From an uncultured Bacteroidota bacterium (GTDB taxonomy: Bacteria; Bacteroidota; Bacteroidia; 2-12-FULL-35-15), in the NCBI GenBank assembly GCA_903870175.1, contig CAIQBY010000166.1:1395-65394 (forward strand): 64,000 nucleotides of DNA, in the 5' to 3' direction. Both the position numbers and the translations under genes were made by a program. Of the stretch, positions 3,390 to 62,310 are shown in pieces; the stretch's first letter is position 1; every line of letters begins with the position of its first letter. The notes under the pieces are model-generated. The model saw only the letters and a program-made list of their open reading frames with translations. It was not told where the DNA came from and did not search any database.

Positions 3390-3625
3390 TTTTTCTGAAA
3401 ATCTGTTAAGATTTTCGGAAAACTTGTGATGATTTTCGGAAAACAATCAAACGATGATGAAAATTTGCAAAGATTTTCGGAAAACTTACAATGATTTTCA
3501 GAAAATTTGTGATGATTTCAAGTAATCTTTGAATGATTCATGAAATCAGTGAAGATTTTGTAAAAATGTTAAATGATTTTCAGTAAATCTTTGAAGAGTT
3601 TCAGTAAATCTTCAAAGATGTCCAA
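3390..3625. repeat. Degenerate 21-bp tandem repeat array (~11 units, consensus ~GATTTTCGGAAAACTTGTGAT) in divergent intergenic region
   Basis: Unit starts recur every 21 bp (gattttcggaaaacttgtgat / gattttcagaaaatttgtgat / gattttcagtaaatctttgaa ...). Lies between the start of the minus-strand lipoprotein gene and the plus-strand T9SS gene. Confidence 0.8.
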
Positions 3626-3867
3626 AAAAGGCTTTTTTGCGTTCAAAATATCAATTTAATACAGTGATAATAAGTAAATCAATCAATAATTAAACACTTA
3701 AAATTTAGAAATCATATTAAAGTTAAATGTTAAAATAGTGTTTTATTACTTTTTTATGGCATTTGTAAAGTATATGTCGGACGATTTTGGTTCATTTCAA
3801 AATAGATGACGTCCTGAAAGCAAAAGACGACTTATTTCCAAAAATCACTCTTATATATAAGATAGAT

Positions 3868-9049: not shown

Positions 9050-10942
9050 ATGGATAAAAATTCAGTAATAGGTCTTGTAATAATAGGCGGTATTTTAATG
9101 GGTTGGATGTACTTTTCAAGACCAAGTGCGGAACAGCTTGCAATTCAAAAACGTATGCAGGATTCTACTCTTGCTTATGTGAAAGTTCAGGAAACCCTTG
9201 CAACAACTCACAAAACTAATAAATCAACTCATACTGCAGGTTCAGGAATCTCAACAGATTCAATTGTTAACCTGAGCGATTCGGCCAAATCTGTTCTTAA
9301 GAAATCTGTATATGGCGATTTTGCTGATGCTTCCACTGGTGATAACAAAACAATTGTACTTGAAAATGAAGTGATGAAAGTAAATGTTTCTCCGAAAGGA
9401 GGACGCATTTCTTCTGTCGAATTAAAGAAATATAAAACATATGATGGCAAGCCTTTGATGTTATTTAATGCAGATTCTTCTACTCAAAAGCTAACATTTG
9501 CCACCTATAATAAGTCATTTGCAACAGATTCATTATATTTTACTCCAGTAGGTGATGCATTTATCCTGACAGGTAAAGCTTCCAAAAGCCTTGCTATGAG
9601 ATTGTATGCAGGCAGTAAAGAAAAATACATTGAATATGTTTATACTCTTACTGGAGATGAATATATGATGGGCTGTAAAATAAATACGGTAGGTATGCAA
9701 AGCGTAATCCCTGCAACCAAAGGGGAAATAGAGCTTAACTGGCAAATGAAAACACCTACGCAGGAACAAAATAAACAAAACCAACAACGTGCCTCCACCA
9801 TCTATTATAATACAATTGAAGATGGGGTTAAAAAGATAAGTGAAGGTACGGAAGATAAGATATCATTTGATACTAAAATGAAATGGGTGGCTTTTAAACA
9901 GCAGTTTTTTACTTCGATTATTATTGCCGATAATACATTTGAAAAACATACGGAAGTAGAATCTGCAATGGAAAAAACTTCTGCTAAATATATAGCAAAT
10001 TATGCCGCAACATTTTCTATTCCTTATAAAGGTTTACCAAATGAATCATTTGGAATGCGTTTTTATTTCGGTCCTAACCATTATCAAACACTCAAAAAAT
10101 ATGATGTTGATATAGAACGACAAATAAATCTTGGCTGGAAAATATTCGGATGGATTAATCGTTTCCTTGTTATTCCAATTTTTAATGTGTTGAATAGTTT
10201 TAATTGGAATTATGGAATTATTATTCTTGTACTTACTATTATTCTTAAATTATTATTGTTGCCGATAGCTTATAAAACAGTGCTTTCGTCTGCAAAAATG
10301 AAAGTATTGAAACCTGAGATTGATGAATTAAACGAGAAGTTTAAGGATGCAGAACCTGTTAAAAAACAACAGGCAACTATGGCTCTTTACAAGCAGGCAG
10401 GTGTTAATCCGATGGCAGGCTGTATTCCAGTACTGCTTCAAATGCCTATACTTATAGCTTTGTTTAACTTCTTCCCTGCGTCTATCGAATTACGTCAGCA
10501 GGGATTCCTTTGGGCGCATGATTTATCGTCTTACGATTCGGTTTACAACTTTGGTTTTTCCGTTCCATGGTATGGCGACCATGTTAGCTTGTTTGCTTTA
10601 TTGATGACTGGTTCCACATTATTATATACCTGGAGCAACAGTCAATTGATGGGCACTCAGCAACAAATGCCGGGTATGAAATGGATGATGTACTTGATGC
10701 CGATTATGTTCCTCGGTTTCTTGAATAATTACTCTGCAGGATTAAGCTGGTATTATTTCCTTGCCAATATGATTACTTTTGGACAGACTTGGGTGATGCA
10801 GAAATTTGTGATTGACCATGATAAATTGCATGCAAAAATTCAAGCCAATAAAAAGAAACCTGTTACAAAGTCAAAGTTTCAGGAGCGTTTGGAACAAATG
10901 ACAAAAGAGCGTCAGCAACAAACACCGGCGAAGAAAAAATAA
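9050..10942 (+). CDS. yidC: Membrane protein insertase YidC (long Bacteroidota form)
   Basis: 630 aa. Large periplasmic domain followed by a conserved YidC/Oxa1 core (LPIAYKTVLSSAKMKVLKPEIDELNEKFKD..ALYKQAGVNPMAGCIPVLLQMPI). Confidence 0.9.
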   Translation: MDKNSVIGLVIIGGILMGWMYFSRPSAEQLAIQKRMQDSTLAYVKVQETLATTHKTNKSTHTAGSGISTDSIVNLSDSAKSVLKKSVYGDFADASTGDNKTIVLENEVMKVNVSPKGGRISSVELKKYKTYDGKPLMLFNADSSTQKLTFATYNKSFATDSLYFTPVGDAFILTGKASKSLAMRLYAGSKEKYIEYVYTLTGDEYMMGCKINTVGMQSVIPATKGEIELNWQMKTPTQEQNKQNQQRASTIYYNTIEDGVKKISEGTEDKISFDTKMKWVAFKQQFFTSIIIADNTFEKHTEVESAMEKTSAKYIANYAATFSIPYKGLPNESFGMRFYFGPNHYQTLKKYDVDIERQINLGWKIFGWINRFLVIPIFNVLNSFNWNYGIIILVLTIILKLLLLPIAYKTVLSSAKMKVLKPEIDELNEKFKDAEPVKKQQATMALYKQAGVNPMAGCIPVLLQMPILIALFNFFPASIELRQQGFLWAHDLSSYDSVYNFGFSVPWYGDHVSLFALLMTGSTLLYTWSNSQLMGTQQQMPGMKWMMYLMPIMFLGFLNNYSAGLSWYYFLANMITFGQTWVMQKFVIDHDKLHAKIQANKKKPVTKSKFQERLEQMTKERQQQTPAKKK

Positions 10943-22629: not shown

Positions 22630-22850
22630 TTTCCCACGCCCATAGGAAATTTTCCCGTTCCCGTTGGAACCATTCCCACTCCCGTTTGAATCGTTCCCTC
22701 TCCCGTTTGAACCGTTCCAGTTCCCGTTGGAACGGTTCCAATTACCGTGGGAACCGTTCCCATTACCGTGGGAATCTTTCCCGTTCCCGTTGGAACCGTT
22801 CCAACGACCGTGGGAACCATTCCCACTACCGTGGGAACCGTTCCCACGGC
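22630..22850. repeat. 21-bp tandem repeat array (~10.5 units, consensus TGGGAACCGTTCCCATTACCG) each containing the palindrome GGAACNGTTCC
   Basis: A periodic array sits in the 428-bp intergenic space between the convergent patatin and mlaD genes. Both overlapping ORFs (22497-22847 minus; 22664-22993 plus) are heptapeptide-repeat artefacts of the array. Confidence 0.85.
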
Positions 22851-22958
22851 TAATTATTTTAACTAAAGTGCTGTTTTATAGCATATTGACTTTATTAAGG
22901 AAGAGAAATTGGGCTTTGGAAGCTTTTTTGGAACGTGAATCTGGAAATCCAAATAGTA

Positions 22959-23942
22959 TTATTTCTTCTCTTTCTCTTTATCCTGCTTTTTGAAATACTT
23001 TTTGAAAGGCCAGGTATGTCGTAAAGCAATCATATTTTCATTAAAGTTTCCTGCACCTTCTTTCACGTTCAACATACTTTTATTAAGATTATGAACAAAC
23101 ATGGTATCAGTAAGCAACGTACCGATTGAGCCTTTTCCATTCTTCAAGTTATTGGAAATAGTTTTGAAATTGCCTGAAATAATAGCAACCGAATCGCTGA
23201 TGGAATGTATATTTACTATAGTTTGATTTAAAGTATGCGAAAAAGTGGTATCGGTAAGCAATGCACCCACAGAGCCTTTTCCGGATTTAATATCTTTTAC
23301 TATTTTGCTCAAATCCCCTGTGATAACTGCCGTATTGTCACCAGTAACTTTAAATCGAATAACAGCATTTCTAACATTTTCGGCTAAAGTTGAATCAGTC
23401 AACAAATGCCATAATGAATTGTTATTATTGAATTTTTCGGATACTCCTTTTAAATTATCAGTAATCACTTTTAAATTATCATTAGTCATTGTAAGGGTTC
23501 GCAAGGCATTGTCCATCTGTAATGGATTCAGCGTAATTAATACACTTCCTTCTTCCACAGATTTAGACCCTTCTTTACCCGGTGAAATATTTATCAGTTT
23601 ATTACCTAGCAATCCATCAGTACCAATAGATGCAATTGCATTTTTCATTATAAATTTTGTGGATTCCTTATCAATAGTAAAATCTACTTTAATAGTTGTA
23701 TCCGAAGAAGAAGATACTTTGGAAACAGTACCTACGTTGATTCCATTAAAACGCACATTATTGCCGGATACCAATCCATTAACATTATTAAAATTTGCAC
23801 TCACATTTATTGTTGAATGAAAAATATTTTTCTTGCTTCCTATATAATACAAACCAAGTATGAGGAAGGTGGTAGCGATTAATACAAAGGCTCCAAGTTT
23901 GGCTTTATTTGCTGATTGTTCTTTCATTTTTGTTTTAATCAA
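22959..23942 (-). CDS. mlaD: MlaD/MCE-family substrate-binding protein
   Basis: 327 aa. N-terminal TM followed by an MCE domain (NVNGLVSGNNVRFNGINVGTVSKV). Confidence 0.8.
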   Translation of the reverse strand: MIKTKMKEQSANKAKLGAFVLIATTFLILGLYYIGSKKNIFHSTINVSANFNNVNGLVSGNNVRFNGINVGTVSKVSSSSDTTIKVDFTIDKESTKFIMKNAIASIGTDGLLGNKLINISPGKEGSKSVEEGSVLITLNPLQMDNALRTLTMTNDNLKVITDNLKGVSEKFNNNNSLWHLLTDSTLAENVRNAVIRFKVTGDNTAVITGDLSKIVKDIKSGKGSVGALLTDTTFSHTLNQTIVNIHSISDSVAIISGNFKTISNNLKNGKGSIGTLLTDTMFVHNLNKSMLNVKEGAGNFNENMIALRHTWPFKKYFKKQDKEKEKK

Positions 23943-24687
23943 AAAATTGTTTAATTTTTATATCCGTCGATTTGCTTAGTTCTTCATAAGTTCCGGTTGC
24001 ATAACATACACCGTCAATCAACATTACAATACGGTTTGATGTTATCTTAACACAATTTATATCATGAGAAATAATTATAGAAGCTGTATTATATTTTTTT
24101 TGAATGTCCAGCATCAGATGACAAATTTCTTTGCCTGTTATGGGGTCAAGACCTGTTGTCGGCTCGTCATACAAAATAATTTTTGGTTTTAATATAAGAG
24201 TTCGTGCGAGTGCAATTCGTTTACGCATCCCTCCGGAAAGCTCCGCAGGCATCATATCCACAGTTTCCGCAAGTCCTACATTTGTCAATGCTTCCATTAC
24301 CAAATCATTTACACTTCCTTTTTCTGTTTTAATCCAATGTCTTCTCAACGGGAATTCAAGATTTTCCCTAACTGTCATGGAATCATACAAAGCATTACTT
24401 TGAAAAAGAAAACCAACTTTCACTCTCATCACATCCAAATCATCATGGGAAAGATCGGTAACTTCATCGCCAAAAACCTGAATACTTCCTGCATCAGGCA
24501 ACATTAAACCGATAATACATTTTATAAGTACCGATTTGCCTGACCCTGATTTGCCCAATACAACAAGGTTTTCAACATCATTCAAATCAAGATTAAAATT
24601 ACGCAGGACATAATTATCACCAAAAGACTTTTGTAAATCTTTGATTTGAATTACAGGTTGCCCAGTATTTGTTATGTTTTCGCTCAT
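23935..24687 (-). CDS. mlaF: ABC transporter ATP-binding protein MlaF
   Basis: 250 aa. Walker A (GKSGSGKS), ABC signature (LSGGMRKRIALAR), and Walker B (ILYDEP). Confidence 0.9.
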   Translation of the reverse strand: MSENITNTGQPVIQIKDLQKSFGDNYVLRNFNLDLNDVENLVVLGKSGSGKSVLIKCIIGLMLPDAGSIQVFGDEVTDLSHDDLDVMRVKVGFLFQSNALYDSMTVRENLEFPLRRHWIKTEKGSVNDLVMEALTNVGLAETVDMMPAELSGGMRKRIALARTLILKPKIILYDEPTTGLDPITGKEICHLMLDIQKKYNTASIIISHDINCVKITSNRIVMLIDGVCYATGTYEELSKSTDIKIKQFFD

Positions 24688-25451
24688 GTGATATGAAGTA
24701 TATCTGCAATTTGAGCAGCCATTAAATCAATAATAAAAACCACAAATGTGCAGGCGACTACTGCTGAATTAGCTGCCCTGCCTACTCCTTCTGTACCGTT
24801 TGTTGTATTGAATCCTTTAAAACAACCAATGATGCCGATGGCAAATCCAAAGAAAAATGATTTAATAATTGAAGGCACAATATCTCCAAAAGTAAGCTTG
24901 TCGAACACCTGACTGACGAATAGATGAAAAGTAATTATTTGTTTCATATTAGTTCCTAAAAATGAACCATACAACGAAATTGTATCACAAACAATAATAA
25001 GAAGTGGGAGCATGAGCATAGCAGCAAATACACGCGTTACAACAAGATATTTAAACGGATTGGTACCTGAAACTTCCATCGCGTCAATCTGTTCGGTTAC
25101 TTTCATGGAACCGAGTTCTGCACCTATGCCCGAACCAATTTTTCCTGCACATATCAGCGCAGTAATTACAGGAACTATTTCCCGAACCAATGAAACGGAA
25201 ACTACTGCAGGCAACCACGATTGCGCACCAAAAGCTTCAAGAGAAGGATGTGATTGTATTGTAATAACAAGCCCCATAATGAAACCAGTTACCCCCACAA
25301 GAGGAAGTGTTTTGTTTCCGATATAAAAACATTGCCTTAACAGTTCTGCAAATTCATATCTTGGTCTAAAACCTTCTCGAAAGAATTTAACTGCAAACCT
25401 ATAAAGTTCGCCTGTTTCAACTAAAAGCTTATGGAGTGCAGTAGATTTCAT
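24684..25451 (-). CDS. mlaE: ABC transporter permease MlaE
   Basis: 255 aa multi-TM permease of the MlaE/YrbE family. Overlaps mlaF by 4 bp. Confidence 0.85.
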   Translation of the reverse strand: MKSTALHKLLVETGELYRFAVKFFREGFRPRYEFAELLRQCFYIGNKTLPLVGVTGFIMGLVITIQSHPSLEAFGAQSWLPAVVSVSLVREIVPVITALICAGKIGSGIGAELGSMKVTEQIDAMEVSGTNPFKYLVVTRVFAAMLMLPLLIIVCDTISLYGSFLGTNMKQIITFHLFVSQVFDKLTFGDIVPSIIKSFFFGFAIGIIGCFKGFNTTNGTEGVGRAANSAVVACTFVVFIIDLMAAQIADILHIT

Positions 25452-25757
25452 TAGTTCTTTTCAATTATCCAATATAAAAACCGATATTGTCATTTCAAAT
25501 GAAGATGTAAAAAGCATATGAAAAATTTCTGTTTGCTAATAATATTAAAATACAAAGATAGGTAGTTGAATTATTTAATGTTTTATATAACTTTAAAATT
25601 ATATTACATTATATACATATTTTGGAGGCAGTTTAACTTGGAGCAATTTTAAATAGTCTGCCGTTTACTATTTGCTATTCAGTTAAAATGATTCGTAAAT
25701 GAATATACTGATGGAAGAAAATCTTTGCGTGAGTTTAATAGACTTTCTTAAAGAAAA

Positions 25758-26132
25758 TTATTTAACCGGTACTTTACTGAGAGATTCTCCCTGACTATTT
25801 TGTTCTTCAAGTGTCCATCCATCCGTCACTGTTGTTTCCAACCATACTTTACCTGATTTTCTGAAAACCTGCACTCCCAAACCATAAACATCACTAAATC
25901 TTTGTTCCAAATCTACAACAGTCATTTTGGAAGTTATTGTAATATGCCCTTTGTTATGAATTGTTCTGCATTCTTCCAATGTCTTACTTGAATGTTTTAT
26001 TAACTTTTTGGGCGATGCACCACTTTGTTTATGCGGTTTGGTAAAAAATTCAATTTTTAAATAAGGAAATTCTGTATTAAATTCCTCCTGAATAGCAGAT
26101 ATTTTTCTATGGTCGTTAATGGTTATTTTCAT
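25758..26132 (-). CDS. Hypothetical protein
   Basis: 124 aa ORF with no recognisable motif, downstream of the UspA gene on the same strand. Confidence 0.4.
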   Translation of the reverse strand: MKITINDHRKISAIQEEFNTEFPYLKIEFFTKPHKQSGASPKKLIKHSSKTLEECRTIHNKGHITITSKMTVVDLEQRFSDVYGLGVQVFRKSGKVWLETTVTDGWTLEEQNSQGESLSKVPVK

Positions 26133-26183
26133 TTTTGCGAATTTTAATTTTATTTCTATTTTAATCTCTATTCAAAGTTATTT

Positions 26184-27014
26184 TTATTCATGCAAAGCAA
26201 GCAAAGGAATTGTAGAATGAAACGCCATACGTTTAGTATTGCTTTCATGAAAAATACTGTCAAAAAATCCATGCTTTTTTGGAATAAAAACAAGCATGTC
26301 TGCCTTTTTATGAGTAACAAATTCATTGATACCTGCAACCATATCTTCATTTTTAATAAAATGAAAAGAATGATCTATTCCTTCCAGAAGATGTTCGATT
26401 CCTACCCCATTGGCTGCCTTTTTAACTGAAGGAAGTTTCTTGACCTCTTTTACTACATTTACTATGTATAACTGAGCTTTAAAAAGGGTAATAAATTTCT
26501 TTAGTAAATCAAAAAATGATTTGTCAGGTATATTCTGATAATCATATCCTAAAACAATTTTTTTAATAATTCTGAATTTCGCCTTTTCATTTATTACCAA
26601 TATAGGGCATCTCGAACGTTTTATTAATTCTGTTGCATTGCTGCCAATCAATTTTTCCCCTAAATATCCTGCACCATTCATTCCCATTATTATTAATTCA
26701 ATGTTTCGGTCTTCAGTATATTGTTTAATAATCTCATCCACTGCAAATCCCATCTGATATATACACTCAATCTTAAGTTCCTTGTCGTATTTGCGTTGAA
26801 GACTATTTTTTATTTTATTCAAAGAAAGCATGCAGTCTTTTTCAATGTCTTCCCAAACCGGCAATATAACAGGGGCCTCAGAAGAAACTACCGGAACGTG
26901 GTAAATATGCATTAAAATTAATTTTGATTTGGTGCGTATGGCAATTTCGGCAGCATAATCAACAGCATTACGTGCGATTTTGGAAAAGTCCGTTGGTACT
27001 AAAATTGCTTTCAT
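26184..27014 (-). CDS. Universal stress protein (tandem UspA domains)
   Basis: 276 aa. MKAILVPTDFSKIARNAVDYAAEIA.. and a second Usp-like half. The ATP-binding G-x2-G-x9-G(S/T) motif region is present. Confidence 0.85.
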   Translation of the reverse strand: MKAILVPTDFSKIARNAVDYAAEIAIRTKSKLILMHIYHVPVVSSEAPVILPVWEDIEKDCMLSLNKIKNSLQRKYDKELKIECIYQMGFAVDEIIKQYTEDRNIELIIMGMNGAGYLGEKLIGSNATELIKRSRCPILVINEKAKFRIIKKIVLGYDYQNIPDKSFFDLLKKFITLFKAQLYIVNVVKEVKKLPSVKKAANGVGIEHLLEGIDHSFHFIKNEDMVAGINEFVTHKKADMLVFIPKKHGFFDSIFHESNTKRMAFHSTIPLLALHE

Positions 27015-32287: not shown

Positions 32288-32950
32288 TTAAATAATAAGC
32301 GTATTAAATGCTTCCCCATCTTCTCCTTTTTCATTTGTAGGGCTTAAATAATAAGCAATCATCCAAAACTGCTTGCCTACATCGGGAAGTGTGAGAAGAC
32401 GTTGAAACTTTGAATTTTTTTCAGGGATTTGAGTCGCATAATCAGTATCCACAGGCACAACTCCAACCGGCATTATTGCTATTTTCCATCCATACGAACC
32501 TGCTCCATAAGGTTTTGTTGTTTTATCTGGGAATTCAGGGTCAAACACAAATAAGCCAATAGACATTGATGATTTTCCGGTACTTGTTACATTTGGTTTC
32601 GCTTTGGTTACCGGTATTTTACTTTTACGTGTTGCTACAATTGGAATTACAAGGCTCAAACGGTCGGCTCCGGTTAACGGCACTATGGCAACATTGCCTC
32701 TCAAAACATTTTTTATTCCCTCGGTTATCACATAATTTGTATTATATAACCCATTCATATCTGATGTAACTCCGCCATTATTTTGAGCAGGGTCGGTGTA
32801 CATATCAAAATTTATAGTCCACGCTTTCCACATATCTGTAAGAACAAGTGCCTGTGCTGCTAATTGTAATCTTACCTGATTATTGTTGATGTAATTTACA
32901 AATATTCTTAAAAAAAAGTTGTAAAGGATAATTTTTATTGAATTTTTCAT
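32288..32950 (-). CDS. Hypothetical protein
   Basis: 220 aa ORF with no recognisable motifs. The start is uncertain. Confidence 0.4.
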   Translation of the reverse strand: MKNSIKIILYNFFLRIFVNYINNNQVRLQLAAQALVLTDMWKAWTINFDMYTDPAQNNGGVTSDMNGLYNTNYVITEGIKNVLRGNVAIVPLTGADRLSLVIPIVATRKSKIPVTKAKPNVTSTGKSSMSIGLFVFDPEFPDKTTKPYGAGSYGWKIAIMPVGVVPVDTDYATQIPEKNSKFQRLLTLPDVGKQFWMIAYYLSPTNEKGEDGEAFNTLII

Positions 32951-33088
32951 GATTTTGTTGTTTTTAATTGTTAAATTATTAATTGTTTATTGCTGATTTT
33001 TTATTGTTAAACTGACCTGTAATTGCTTGATTTGTACTCTTTAAATCCTATTTATTTTTTGGATTCAACCTCCAAAACACATTTTTTT

Positions 33089-33350
33089 ACCTTGTTTTTC
33101 TCCTTGTTTCAATAAGAATGGATATTGTTTGAATGATATCCGATATTATTTGAACAAGAACCAATCTTATTTGAACAAGAACCAATCTTGTTTCAATATG
33201 AACCTACCTTGTTTAAATGATATCCGATCTTGTTTGAATGATATCGGATATTATTTGAACAAGAACCATTATTGTTTCAATAAGAACCAATCTTATTGAA
33301 ACAAGATCCATTCTTGTATGAATAAGATCCATTCTTATTGAAACAAGGAG
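33089..33350. repeat. 21-bp tandem repeat array (~12 units, consensus ~RTTTGAAYAAGAWCCAATCTT) bounded by 24-bp inverted repeats
   Basis: Units include gtttgaatgatatccgatatt, atttgaacaagaaccaatctt and others. The terminal inverted repeat is ctccttgtttcaataagaatggat (33100-33123) paired with atccattcttattgaaacaaggag (33327-33350). Located in an 840-bp divergent intergenic region. Confidence 0.85.
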
Positions 33351-33789
33351 ATTTTTACCCTTTTCAAGTTCTTATTTCCTGTTTTAGAGAACTAAAAATG
33401 CACTTCAAAGAACTGTTTTTTTGCTTTTTAATGTTGAGGAAAGCTTCCTTTAAAAATCTTTTAATCTTTAATAAGACAGATTTAAGGAAGAAGGGGCACA
33501 GAATCTTACTGATGAGTTACCCGCTAACTTTGGATGCATCTCGAAACTATTTGTTTCTACCGGTAAAATTATGTTTTAAACGAATACCAAATGAATAAAT
33601 CTTTTTGAAATACCAGTATTTTCAGATATTTGGGCTGGAGAGGAGTGCTATGATAGATTATAAAAGTTATCAACCGTCTTAAATTATTTTCTTAAAAGAC
33701 GTTTTGAAGAGATAATTGCGTAGTATTTAGAAATTATACGCATTATATTATATACATTTGTATTATCAAATAAATTAATCCTCCTTAAA

Positions 33790-35880
33790 ATGAAAAGAAT
33801 TACTCTCTCCTTATCAGTTATTGTAGCACTTACAATTCTTTCGTTTACAAGCCGAGCACAAACAAATGTGAGTGGCGGAATACACGTAAATACTACTTGG
33901 ACTTTAGCAAATAGTCCGTATATAGTAGTAGATACTGTGGTTGTATTTCCGGGGATAACGCTTACTATACAACCGGGTGTTGTTGTGAAATTTAATAATA
34001 CAATGCAACTTGAAATAAGGCAGGCAACGCTAATAACAAATGGAACAAGTGCAAATCCAATTACTTTTACAAGTAATTCAAGTTCGCCGACACCAGGTAT
34101 TTGGGAAAGTATTTATTTAAACCAATGTGTTTCTGCGGGTTTTAATTACTGTAATTTTAGTTATTCAAAATATGGAATTGCTAATTCAAGTACTCTTCAA
34201 ATATCAATTAAAAACTCAAATTTTACATTTAATACAAATGGAATTTATCAATGTTTTATCAATATGGATTCATGTGTTTTCAAACATAATACAAATGGTA
34301 TTAATACTGCCATGGGTCCTGGGAAAATACTTAATTCCATTTTTACAAATAATCAGAGTGGATTATTAAATAATGACGGCTCCAAAACAATAAATTGTAT
34401 TTTCAATTCCAATCAAACTGGAATAACCATAAGCGGATATAGGGTTTTAATAAAAAATTGTGTAGTTGATTCTAATACCACATTAGGAGTTAGTTTACCC
34501 CCAAGTGGAAATTATGATACCATATTTAATAATCAGATAAAATATAACGGCATTGGTTTGGAAAGTGCCGCTGCTTCAAGTGGTGCAATAATAACTAAAA
34601 ATGTTTTTGATAATAACAATATAGGCATTAAAGAAAGCAATAATGTCGATTCTATATATTGTAATAGAATTTGTAACAGTACTTCCTACGCTTTTTATTA
34701 TAATGCAAATTCTAATTATAATGCATATTTAGGAAATAATTATTTTTGTACCCCCGATTCTATTTCAACAGCAGCTGTAGTTTATGATGGATATGACAAT
34801 ATAAATTATGGCTTAGTAAATTTTATGCCGCTTGATACAACCAATTGTTATCAAACTGGTTGCAATCTTCATGTCTCAGCAAATATTACCAGTGCAACTT
34901 GCAGGACTTGCCCAAATGGTTCAGCAATTGCTCATGTTCTATACGGTTTTCCTCCATATACATACACTTGGTATTCTACACCAATTCAAAACACACAAAC
35001 AGCTATAGGTTTGGCTTCCGGCAATTATGGAATATGTGTTACAGACGCAAACGGATGTTCCGCCTGCGACACTATTTTTGTAGACTCTACAAATTGTACT
35101 GGGTTTTCCATTGTTCCAAACTCAACTAATGCTTCGTGTACTACCTGTGCTGATGGTACAGCTAAAGTTATTCCAACAGGCGGCACAGCACCATATCATT
35201 ATACTTGGTACACTAGCCCTATGCAAACAACAGACTCTATTTCAGGATTAATTCATGGTACTTATCATGTTTGTGTTACTGATGCGAATGGTTGTATATC
35301 CTGCGATTCAACTACTGTGAATGTTGGAAGTTGTTCGGCACATTATAATCTGTATTCTACTGCCACTCCGCATTATTATACAGCTGTGAATATGGCTTCG
35401 GGCGCAGCGCCTTTAACCTATTACTGGAGTTGGGGAGATGGCACACACGATACAGCAGCATATCCAAGTCATACCTATGCTGCAACAGGTTTTTACAATA
35501 TCTGCCTCACTATTACCGATAATGCTGGATGTACCAATACCTATTGTTCTTCATATTATTTACTCCGTCCGCAAAGTCAAATGGTTTATGTAAATGTAAT
35601 TTCAAATACAACAGTTGGTATAAATCAATTGATAGCAGATAATTCTATTTCAATTTATCCCAATCCATTCACCTCCCAAACAACAATTTCTTTTTCTACC
35701 GAACAAACAAATACTTCAATAAAAATAACAGATGTGGTAGGCAAAGAAATAAAAACAATAAACTTTACCGGCACACAATATATTTTGGAAAAAGGAATAA
35801 TGAAGCCAGGTATTTATTTCGTGCAGATAACGGATGCCAATAAAAATGTGGTGAACAGAAAAATAATTATTAATGATTAG
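33790..35880 (+). CDS. Secreted parallel beta-helix / Cys-rich repeat protein with T9SS C-terminal sorting domain
   Basis: 696 aa. Signal peptide. Beta-helix-like N-rich repeats, then three ~80-aa Cys-rich modules (C.TC..G.A...GG.PYTYTWY...GL..G.Y.VCVTDANGC), a PKD-like segment, and a T9SS CTD (SIYPNPF...GIYFVQITD). Confidence 0.8.
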   Translation: MKRITLSLSVIVALTILSFTSRAQTNVSGGIHVNTTWTLANSPYIVVDTVVVFPGITLTIQPGVVVKFNNTMQLEIRQATLITNGTSANPITFTSNSSSPTPGIWESIYLNQCVSAGFNYCNFSYSKYGIANSSTLQISIKNSNFTFNTNGIYQCFINMDSCVFKHNTNGINTAMGPGKILNSIFTNNQSGLLNNDGSKTINCIFNSNQTGITISGYRVLIKNCVVDSNTTLGVSLPPSGNYDTIFNNQIKYNGIGLESAAASSGAIITKNVFDNNNIGIKESNNVDSIYCNRICNSTSYAFYYNANSNYNAYLGNNYFCTPDSISTAAVVYDGYDNINYGLVNFMPLDTTNCYQTGCNLHVSANITSATCRTCPNGSAIAHVLYGFPPYTYTWYSTPIQNTQTAIGLASGNYGICVTDANGCSACDTIFVDSTNCTGFSIVPNSTNASCTTCADGTAKVIPTGGTAPYHYTWYTSPMQTTDSISGLIHGTYHVCVTDANGCISCDSTTVNVGSCSAHYNLYSTATPHYYTAVNMASGAAPLTYYWSWGDGTHDTAAYPSHTYAATGFYNICLTITDNAGCTNTYCSSYYLLRPQSQMVYVNVISNTTVGINQLIADNSISIYPNPFTSQTTISFSTEQTNTSIKITDVVGKEIKTINFTGTQYILEKGIMKPGIYFVQITDANKNVVNRKIIIND

Positions 35881-45039: not shown

Positions 45040-45116
45040 TGTCATAAATTTTATGACTTATAAATCTTAAATGTTTTTTTGTGCGGGCAACATCCTTCCA
45101 TGTTGCAATATTCTAA

Positions 45117-45220
45117 CCCGCTTTCCCCTCCAATCTTATTTGCCTTGAAAAAAGGCAAATAAGGATTTCCGGTATAATCGGGCGCAGTTGCAAGTGCATC
45201 GTTCTCCTAAAGTTTTCCAT
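45117..45220. ncRNA. Conserved ~105-nt intergenic element, copy 1 (strand unresolved). Contains hairpin TTATTTGCCTT/AAGGCAAATAA
   Basis: Near-identical to 62207..62310 outside the hairpin. The hairpin stems differ but both pair perfectly (compensatory). Confidence 0.45.
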
Positions 45221-45278
45221 ACCAGGAGAGTAGTTAAAATAGCAATTCATCCAAAACCAACAAGTTACAATTAACAAA

Positions 45279-45520
45279 ACTCCAAGTTTAGTCAGCCAAC
45301 CTCCAAGTATTGACACCAAACCTCTAAGTTTAGTCAGCCTGCCTCCAAGTATTGACACCAAATCTCCAAGTTTAGTCAGCCTGCCTCCAAGTATTGACAC
45401 CAAACCTCTAAGTTTAGTCAGCCTGCCTCCAAGTATTGACACTAAATCTCCAAGTTTAGTCAGCCTGCCTCCAAGTTTAGTTAGCCAACCTCCAAGTTTA
45501 CCAAGCAAACTTTTAAGTTC
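45279..45520. repeat. 42-bp (2 x 21-bp) tandem repeat array (~5.5 units: CTCCAAGTTTAGTCAGCCTGC + CTCCAAGTATTGACACCAAAY)
   Basis: Perfect or near-perfect copies immediately after conserved element copy 1, upstream of uvrD. The minus-strand ORF 45113-45571 is a heptad artefact of the array. Confidence 0.85.
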
Positions 45521-62079: not shown

Positions 62080-62206
62080 TGTAATGGATTTTAAGTGAAT
62101 TATTAAATTGTTTTTATAGTGAGATGCATCCCCCTTTAAAATTCCATAAACAATTTTGAAATATTTTTTTTGGCGACCAAAGTTCCTGCCATCCATCAAG
62201 TTCGTT

Positions 62207-62310
62207 CCCGCTTTCCCCTCCAATCTTTTTATTTTTGAAGAAAAAATAAAAAGGATTTCCGGTACAATCGGGCGCAGTTGCAGCAGTATCGTCCTCCTCC
62301 AGTTTTCCAT
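62207..62310. ncRNA. Conserved ~105-nt intergenic element, copy 2. Contains hairpin CTTTTTATTTTT/AAAAATAAAAAG. Lies in 5' leader of A2M gene on minus strand
   Basis: See copy 1 at 45117..45220. Flanks are conserved (CCCGCTTTCCCCTCCAATCT ... GGATTTCCGGTAyAATCGGGCGCAGTTGCA ... ATCGTyCTCCT..AGTTTTCCAT). Confidence 0.45.

Follow-up and report, generated by a model that had tools for sequence, protein, structure and literature searches.

Tandem arrays whose units recur at a near-integer number of helical turns are well known from plasmids and phages, where about 4-12 copies lie beside rep or par genes and are bound cooperatively on one face of the helix. Dimeric proteins bind such phased arrays in F sopC (12 x 43 bp, each unit with an inverted repeat), R1 parC and the omega heptads of pSM19035, and the iterons of lambda, R6K and RK2 are about 19-22 bp long. 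In the genomes of enterobacteria, bacterial interspersed mosaic elements (BIMEs) and clusters of repetitive extragenic palindromes (REPs) form intergenic mosaics of imperfect palindromes in alternating orientation, which are bound by nucleoid proteins. Transcriptional control in Bacteroidota is poorly understood. From this phylum BrickBuilt was described, a Porphyromonas gingivalis transposable element of the miniature inverted-repeat kind (MITE) that contains a minisatellite with 1-23 copies of a 23-nt unit without spacers (Klein et al. 2015, PMC4596501). Its leader measures up to 285 nt and its tail up to 318 nt, promoter activity has been proposed for it, and its single unit sequence occurs in 19 dispersed copies by unrelated genes, with outer terminal inverted repeats (PMC4596501). 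The present analysis concerns a 21-bp tandem array, here called array C, in a 64,000-nucleotide stretch of an uncultured Bacteroidota bacterium (assembly GCA_903870175.1, contig CAIQBY010000166.1, positions 1,395 to 65,394), which as a whole is referred to as the window. At this place array C represents a conserved module upstream of a family of paralogous genes, whose local member encodes an uncharacterised protein of 220 amino acids (aa). An array which is linked to a gene family and has a conserved period but an unconserved sequence was not found in the literature searched.

Array C lies, as a preliminary description of the window had stated, in a divergent intergenic region between the 220-aa gene on the minus strand and a gene for a type IX secretion system (T9SS) beta-helix protein on the plus strand; the region measures 839 bp (32951-33789, in positions of the window, as everywhere unless another locus is named). 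The units of 21 bp follow head-to-tail with starts at 33103, 33124 and so on up to 33334, end at 33350 and leave no spacer DNA between them. They amount to 11.8 copies, or to the twelve counted earlier when the truncated last unit is included. Tandem Repeats Finder reported a period of 21 with higher-order periods of 42, 84 and 105. The autocorrelation reached 0.69 at a lag of 21, 0.66 at 42 and 0.61 at 63, whereas 2000 shuffles did not exceed 0.42, which bears out the periodicity. Each unit is composed of a directional, quasi-palindromic 14-bp core, CTTRTTnnAAYAAG, and a 7-bp spacer. Core positions 2, 3, 5, 9 and 10 are invariant across the units. Positions 4 and 11, which are opposed across the dyad, carry G..T in 7 units, A..C in 5 and a mixed pair in none (Fisher p = 0.0013). 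From this strict co-variation it follows that the cores are directional and are present in both orientations within a single 21-bp register, without any phase shift. Reverse-complementing the cores of units 1, 5 and 9 gives exactly those of units 10 and 12, in agreement with the earlier remark that units are mutual reverse complements. The terminal inverted repeat, described before as perfect over 24 bp, is exact and in fact 25 bp long; 33099-33123 pairs with 33327-33351 and a segment of 203 bp is enclosed. It represents the extreme case of core flipping, in which the end units stand in opposite orientation. The 130-bp arms of the overall palindrome are 65% complementary, with dyad centres every 10.5 bp. 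The hairpin potential suggested earlier was confirmed by folding array C as single-stranded DNA, which gave -63.7 kcal/mol against -19.4 +/- 3.1 in shuffles (z = -14.4).

Compared with the plasmid and phage arrays, array C likewise has head-to-tail, internally dyad-symmetric units with a period near an integer number of helical turns, and may likewise be bound by protein; as the omega sites of pSM19035 tolerate both unit orientations, array C also holds both. Unlike those arrays, in which one unit serves each system, it is chromosomal, within a cbb3 oxidase cluster, and no rep or par gene is nearby. Of the marks of an iteron or partition array, the phased dyad repeats are present, but neither a neighbouring rep or par gene nor the setting of a plasmid or phage is. 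With BIMEs and REPs array C shares the intergenic position, the short imperfect palindromes in both orientations and the strong hairpin potential. REPs occur in hundreds of dispersed copies with one consensus and variable spacing, whereas array C has a strict spacing of 21 bp, a locus-specific unit and a link to one gene family.

To place array C in its family, six family-linked arrays were compared: array C, array A in the same window, and those of the loci L010, L011, L069 and L070. The array of L069 is incomplete (4 units) and the other five are complete. L010 and L011 are paralogous loci in the metagenome-assembled genome (MAG) 'uncultured Bacteroidetes MJ-time_bin-7887', which is separate from the genome of the window. 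The layout of a conserved block, a 21-bp array, an A/T-rich leader and the 220-aa gene recurs at the six loci, whose proteins are 33-100% identical. A 21-bp array is present upstream at every one of the six family loci examined, always with best autocorrelation lags of 21 and 42 and with a gap of 91-150 bp to the ATG, and the unit number is 9-13 in the complete arrays. At L010 and L011 the array lies 115 bp upstream of the ATG. L070 (protein 33% identical) has 12.3 units with 95% matches 150 bp before the ATG, and at L069 (protein about 38% identical) the contig begins within the array, 91 bp before the ATG. The block next to array C is also homologous between loci: 33352-33488 of the window is 70% identical to L010 9519-9652 (E about 1e-9), and this block directly precedes the L010 and L011 arrays. 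Between L010 9347-9655 and L011 9348-9655 the block is 90.6% identical, while the full alignment 9347-10661, composed of block, array, leader and gene, is 72% identical. Such a value for a non-coding segment suggests strong constraint or gene conversion. No credible open reading frame (ORF) was found in the L010 homologue of the block, and Rfam had no match to the block. As homologous flanks are present at several loci, the recurrent unit is the whole module of block, array, leader and 220-aa gene.

Array C therefore belongs with the 220-aa gene of a freshwater Bacteroidota family and not with the T9SS gene, for which a separate TACATTTG box is present at 33753, some 400 bp from the array. The earlier proposal of a regulatory array is still plausible, in relation to the 220-aa gene rather than the T9SS gene. 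In the leader, a motif CAATTAATAATTWAACAATTAAAA just upstream of the ATG is common to the family loci, and the strongly conserved leader element is confined to the last 70 nt or so before the ATG. No canonical sigma-A box was found on the sense side upstream of any family gene, whether in the array, in the leader or upstream of the array. With no such box in the array and a conserved leader element near the ATG, the array is placed upstream of the likely promoter. At L070 a second array with a 10-bp period (AAAACGAAAC, about 13 copies, 20-bp super-unit) was observed at 416-544, upstream of the 21-bp array and in the position which the conserved block has at other loci. Upstream of the family genes P0005 and P0006, called ORFs of 72-89 aa end 57-96 bp before the gene, with the size and position that would be expected of an ORF artefact over a 10-13-unit array.

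By unit sequence the family-linked arrays divide into no fewer than three mutually unrelated classes, {C, L070}, {A, L010, L011} and {L069}. The 12-mer TTCTTGTTCAAA is common to C and L070 and has the same orientation relative to the gene in both (score 12.2 vs 8.65 +/- 0.79), and the C-type and A-type units showed no significant relation (P = 0.16). The protein beside array C is 59% identical to that of L010 and 50% to that of L011, which have the A-type unit, and 33% to that of L070, which has the C-type unit. All five complete arrays are self-complementary (z between -5 and -16); the truncated four-unit fragment of L069 gave z = -1.0. The end units are inverted in L070 as in C, and A, L010 and L011 have no such perfect terminal repeats. 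As far as can be read from these sequences, period and position are kept across the family arrays while the unit sequence is not.

The explanation which we favour, tentatively and somewhat short of an even chance, is that array C is a phased duplex-DNA platform for the cooperative binding of a dyad-recognising protein upstream of the promoter of the 220-aa gene. The array would act on duplex DNA through the dyad-like core borne by every unit. As 21 bp make two turns of the helix (both wedge models give about 2.0 turns per unit), the cores would come to lie on one face, and a dimeric protein recognising the dyads would bind cooperatively along about 250 bp. The bound array would then control a promoter in the adjoining leader by activation, by silencing or by insulating it from the divergently oriented T9SS gene. 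The terminal inverted repeat would have arisen incidentally, from end units that happen to face opposite ways. Since each core is a quasi-palindrome with a direction, the lattice stays intact when a segment flips or is 'corrected' by template switching.

Besides C, the window has three other intergenic arrays of period 21, whose units are unrelated: A at 3391-3618, B at 22652-22846 and D at 45275-45500, making four in 64 kb. The unit of array B, TTCCCGTTCCCGTTGGAACCG, is organised in a 63-bp super-unit between convergent patatin and MlaD genes, and that of array D, CTCCAAGTTTAGTCAGCCAAC, in a 42-bp super-unit. Array B differs from its counterpart in the relative L007 by exactly one 21-bp unit inside a 3.6-kb tract with 2 substitutions, and so some arrays of this lineage behave as fast variable-number tandem repeats (VNTRs). 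Window and L007 are 96% identical overall, with a mosaic pattern of divergence; the tract 22725-26324 with its 2 substitutions is bordered by 400-bp bins with 20-60, which suggests a recent recombination tract. Array A and the array of L011 align without any unit indel across species-level divergence and have one aberrant unit in common. Their substitutions fall on the three codon phases as 14/12/13, and this even distribution means that the arrays are non-coding. They evolve by point substitution. The homogeneity of units ranges from about 95% in L070 down to about 75% in C.

Several of these observations weigh against a protein-binding platform. No candidate binding protein was found, and the 220-aa protein itself is predicted from its structural model to lack a DNA-binding fold. 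As different unit classes stand before paralogues, and both C and A occur in one genome, a single regulator cannot read all arrays by sequence. The promoter of the 220-aa gene is itself a putative one. The identity between array A and L011 is 84%, that of the adjacent leader is 81%, and the palindromic core is no better conserved than the spacer; thus no purifying selection is measurable at array A, and this array persists after the decay of its gene. Arrays B and D have the period of 21 but no adjoining family gene, and the lineage may simply generate 21-bp arrays.

The same data bear on a neutral minisatellite, in which an ancestral 21-bp array would have been inherited with the duplicating module, drifting and being homogenised by unequal exchange without any function; inverted units and the perfect terminal repeat would arise from template switching at the quasi-palindromes. 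The one-unit change of array B, the 84- and 105-bp higher-order repeats in C, which indicate block duplications, the gene-less array A changing at a rate like its flanks, the presence of B and D away from family genes and the range of unit homogeneity all speak for such drift. Bacterial genomes are generally biased towards deletion. Despite this bias, the array occupies the same slot at all six family loci examined, with proteins down to 33% identical, and its unit number is held within narrow limits in the complete arrays. Dyad symmetry is found in every unit class, including the recently homogenised L070, and A and L011 are without unit indels. A neutral minisatellite is considered unlikely, although it is to be taken seriously.

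A module constituting an undescribed regulatory cassette, in which the selected property is the array geometry itself (two-turn period, dyad cores, about 250 bp), is rated as rather improbable. The recogniser might be a filament-forming or wrapping protein of nucleoid type, or there might be a dedicated mechanism maintaining the array, and the unit sequences would be free to turn over or to be swapped between loci. This reading would account for the common core of C and L070 despite a protein identity of 33%, and also for the unusually dense occurrence of 21-bp arrays in the lineage. Period and dyad symmetry are kept with the sequence left free, which makes a natural experiment on how far selection on a cis-element can bear on DNA geometry rather than on base sequence. 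If the protein-binding platform proved true, array C would be a chromosomal, gene-family-linked counterpart in Bacteroidota of the plasmid centromere and iteron arrays.

The self-complementarity of the arrays could also act at the level of single-stranded nucleic acid, where a long imperfect hairpin would form a structured 5' untranslated region (UTR), or a separate transcript serving as RNase III target or controlling stability or translation, or would arise in single-stranded DNA during replication. Every complete family-linked array folds much more stably than its shuffles, the outer stem of C is perfect over 25 bp, the end units of L070 are inverted, and no canonical promoter was found between array and gene. 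Hairpin potential follows automatically from dyad-symmetric units and so does not constitute independent evidence, and the region upstream of the array is likewise free of a promoter box. Between A and L011, pairing is kept slightly better than under substitutions placed at random (P = 0.005-0.46 across strands and directions), a compensation signal that is weak and inconsistent. Array C folds better antisense to the 220-aa gene (-111.5 vs -95.2 kcal/mol), whereas A, L010 and L011 fold better in the sense direction. Rfam offered no family for array C beyond generic hairpin noise, in the form of sub-threshold hairpins resembling miRNA precursors. A function of the hairpin is accordingly thought doubtful, with a chance that is small but real.

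A MITE-like element, which had been among the first suggestions, would be a BrickBuilt-like composite inserted upstream of the gene and supplying it with promoters. An architecture of leader, tandem repeat and tail in intergenic position was indeed found at the C locus of the window, at L010 and at L011, and the succession of block, array and leader formally resembles the leader, 23-nt repeats and tail of BrickBuilt (PMC4596501). Like BrickBuilt, it is an intergenic, spacer-less tandem array of a Bacteroidota genome between two different conserved segments, and the array is bounded by an inverted repeat. Unlike in BrickBuilt, the units differ from copy to copy, the period is 21 and outer terminal repeats are lacking; the module is always found before members of one gene family and is duplicated along with the gene, which the similarity of L010 and L011 over 9347-10661 includes. 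In the 64 kb the unit pattern had 16 matches, all within array C, and the 24-bp inverted repeat, with 3 mismatches allowed, had 2, both at the ends of the array. The 47 isolated unit matches in JGI metagenomes are near the estimated chance number, IMG/VR gave 5, and in neither collection did the unit patterns occur within an array. No target-site duplication or clean direct repeat abuts the inverted repeat of array C. As for outer terminal repeats of the module, inverted matches of the outer block to the leader or to the region downstream reach 14-15 nt with 2 mismatches, no more than the shuffle maximum of 15. Because paralogous loci fill the slot with arrays of other units, array C is an integral part of the upstream region of its gene and not an insertion. 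A mobile element is consequently very unlikely.

The perfect terminal repeat had also led to the proposal of a phase-variation switch, in which the 25-bp repeats would be recombinase targets and the 203-bp segment would flip to switch expression. Inverted repeats of this kind around a segment of about 200 bp are typical dimensions of Bacteroides invertons, where repeats of about 20-30 bp flank the intergenic segment, and array C resembles them in this respect, lying between divergent genes. Unlike the invertons, it lacks a promoter box inside the segment, a recombinase in the vicinity and variants of orientation. The Bacteroidota -7 box TAnnTTTG is absent from both strands of 33099-33351, although promoters of alternative sigma factors would escape this pattern, and no recombinase domain was found among the called genes within about 13 kb on either side. 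In six assemblies from different samples array C is identical and in one orientation; as these contigs are 99.7-99.99% identical to the window overall, this identity is uninformative on conservation. Flipping a quasi-palindromic segment would change little, and the paralogous arrays A, L010 and L011 are without perfect terminal repeats. An invertible switch is thus the least probable of the explanations and close to dismissal. Array C also does not behave as a contingency locus with a hypervariable VNTR, as no unit-number polymorphism was seen in the six contigs, nor between A and L011.

Intrinsic curvature, considered as a sequence-independent cause of the 21-bp period, was rejected for array C. 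The bends of any unit that recurs every two helical turns should in principle add up in phase. In wedge models, array C was predicted to be unusually straight, with an end-to-end/contour ratio of 0.976 (Bolshoy-Trifonov parameters) or 0.983 (De Santis parameters); about 92% of windows are less straight, and among random 21-mer arrays C falls in the straightest 5% or so. Arrays A, D, L010, L011 and L070 were predicted to be curved, but not beyond random periodic arrays (random 21-mer x 11); A and D are among the most curved DNA of the window in these models. A coding heptad repeat was discarded, as the longest ORF in C has 56 aa with a TTG start and none of the assemblies has a gene call there. 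The ORFs that cover arrays B, C and D are repeat artefacts, with substitutions even across codon phases. A CRISPR array was dismissed as well, since the units are contiguous without spacers and the sole CRISPR-DR match reached 23.8 bits against a gathering score of 39. Readings of the units as FNR/CRP-like or sigma-54-like sites, made by eye only, leave about 3 mismatches each. At gathering score, the Rfam scan of the window returned only Flavo-1 (RF01705), away from array C. Its copies lie at 45110-45189 (-) and 62200-62279 (-), with a further one at L011 9171-9253 (-), and their scores are 58-68 bits, with the gathering score at 42. Array D has a copy about 85 bp away, which is overlapped by a spurious 152-aa ORF, and that of L011 is about 100 bp upstream of the conserved block. 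Flavo-1 matches are reported to be sense or antisense to transcribed regions alike, and many are outside them (PMC9723704).

Reading of these upstream regions is affected by assembly. The contigs L071, L072 and L069 begin inside arrays, and short-read assemblies break at these arrays. The contigs of relatives with proteins 95%, 78%, 70% and 49% identical stop 55-155 bp upstream of the gene, and no orthologous C array is readable in them; because the leader is also multi-copy, these breaks are not attributable to the array alone. Breaks at arrays imply that the upstream regions of the family are systematically missing from MAGs. The features of the C locus and of the second module copy are listed in the table.

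Table. Positions of the array C module, its parts and the related module copy in the window.
Feature	Position	Strand	Remark
Array A, unit GATTTTCGGAAAACTTGTGAT	3391..3618	+	Second module copy in the window; unit-for-unit alignment with the L011 array
Leader and decayed family-gene start after array A	3619..3766	+	ATG changed to ATA at 3716; L011/L012 homology stops after about 17 codons
220-aa gene, uncharacterised family	32288..32950	-	Gene to which array C is linked; no Pfam match
Leader between array C and 220-aa ATG	32951..33098	-	Presumed core promoter and 5' UTR; motif CAATTAATAATTTAACAATTAAAAA at 32961-32985 conserved in the family
Degenerate 13th unit TTTTTTTACCTTGTTTTTCTC	33082..33102	.	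Gene-proximal edge of array C
Array C	33099..33351	.	12 x 21-bp units; overall a 253-bp imperfect palindrome centred at 33225
Terminal inverted repeat, left arm TCTCCTTGTTTCAATAAGAATGGAT	33099..33123	+	Unit 1 and 4 bp of the preceding degenerate unit
Terminal inverted repeat, right arm	33327..33351	-	Unit 11 spacer, inverted core of unit 12 and GAGA
Conserved non-coding block	33352..33660	-	Abuts array C on the side distal to the 220-aa gene

The neighbourhood of array C contains a CcoI-type ATPase, the T9SS cargo protein, a toxin-antitoxin pair and ccoS/ccoNO. The T9SS cargo gene (33790-35880, +) encodes 696 aa with NosD-like beta-helix, SprB, PKD and T9SS C-terminal sorting domains. Between the CcoI-type ATPase and ccoS/ccoNO, the segment 32288-36529 (220-aa gene with its array, T9SS cargo gene, DUF433/DUF5615 pair) looks like an insertion into the cbb3 oxidase cluster. 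Just past the CcoI-type ATPase there are a PAS histidine kinase and a response regulator with which a Crp-type helix-turn-helix domain is fused.

The 220-aa protein had 11 homologous clusters at first, and a profile search at E <= 0.001 raised this to 215 cluster representatives. In its high-confidence AlphaFold model (pLDDT, the predicted local distance difference test, 96.9) a helical bundle at the N-terminus is followed by an Fn3-like sandwich at the C-terminus, and the structure search returned generic Fn3 domains only. The family has no match in Pfam, NCBIfam, PADLOC or PHROG and is a candidate new protein family, for which the upstream array would serve as a genomic signature in defining it (about 215 cluster representatives, helical bundle and Fn3-like domain). 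No relatives were found in viral contigs or in the JGI metagenome contigs searched, and the search of genome contigs gave one MAG only. Several paralogues are present per genome, each with its own terminator hairpin downstream. At L010 10797-11843, a nucleoid-associated gene (NA37 in Pfam; YejK/NdpA type) is situated directly downstream of the family gene, which at this single locus may be a coincidence.

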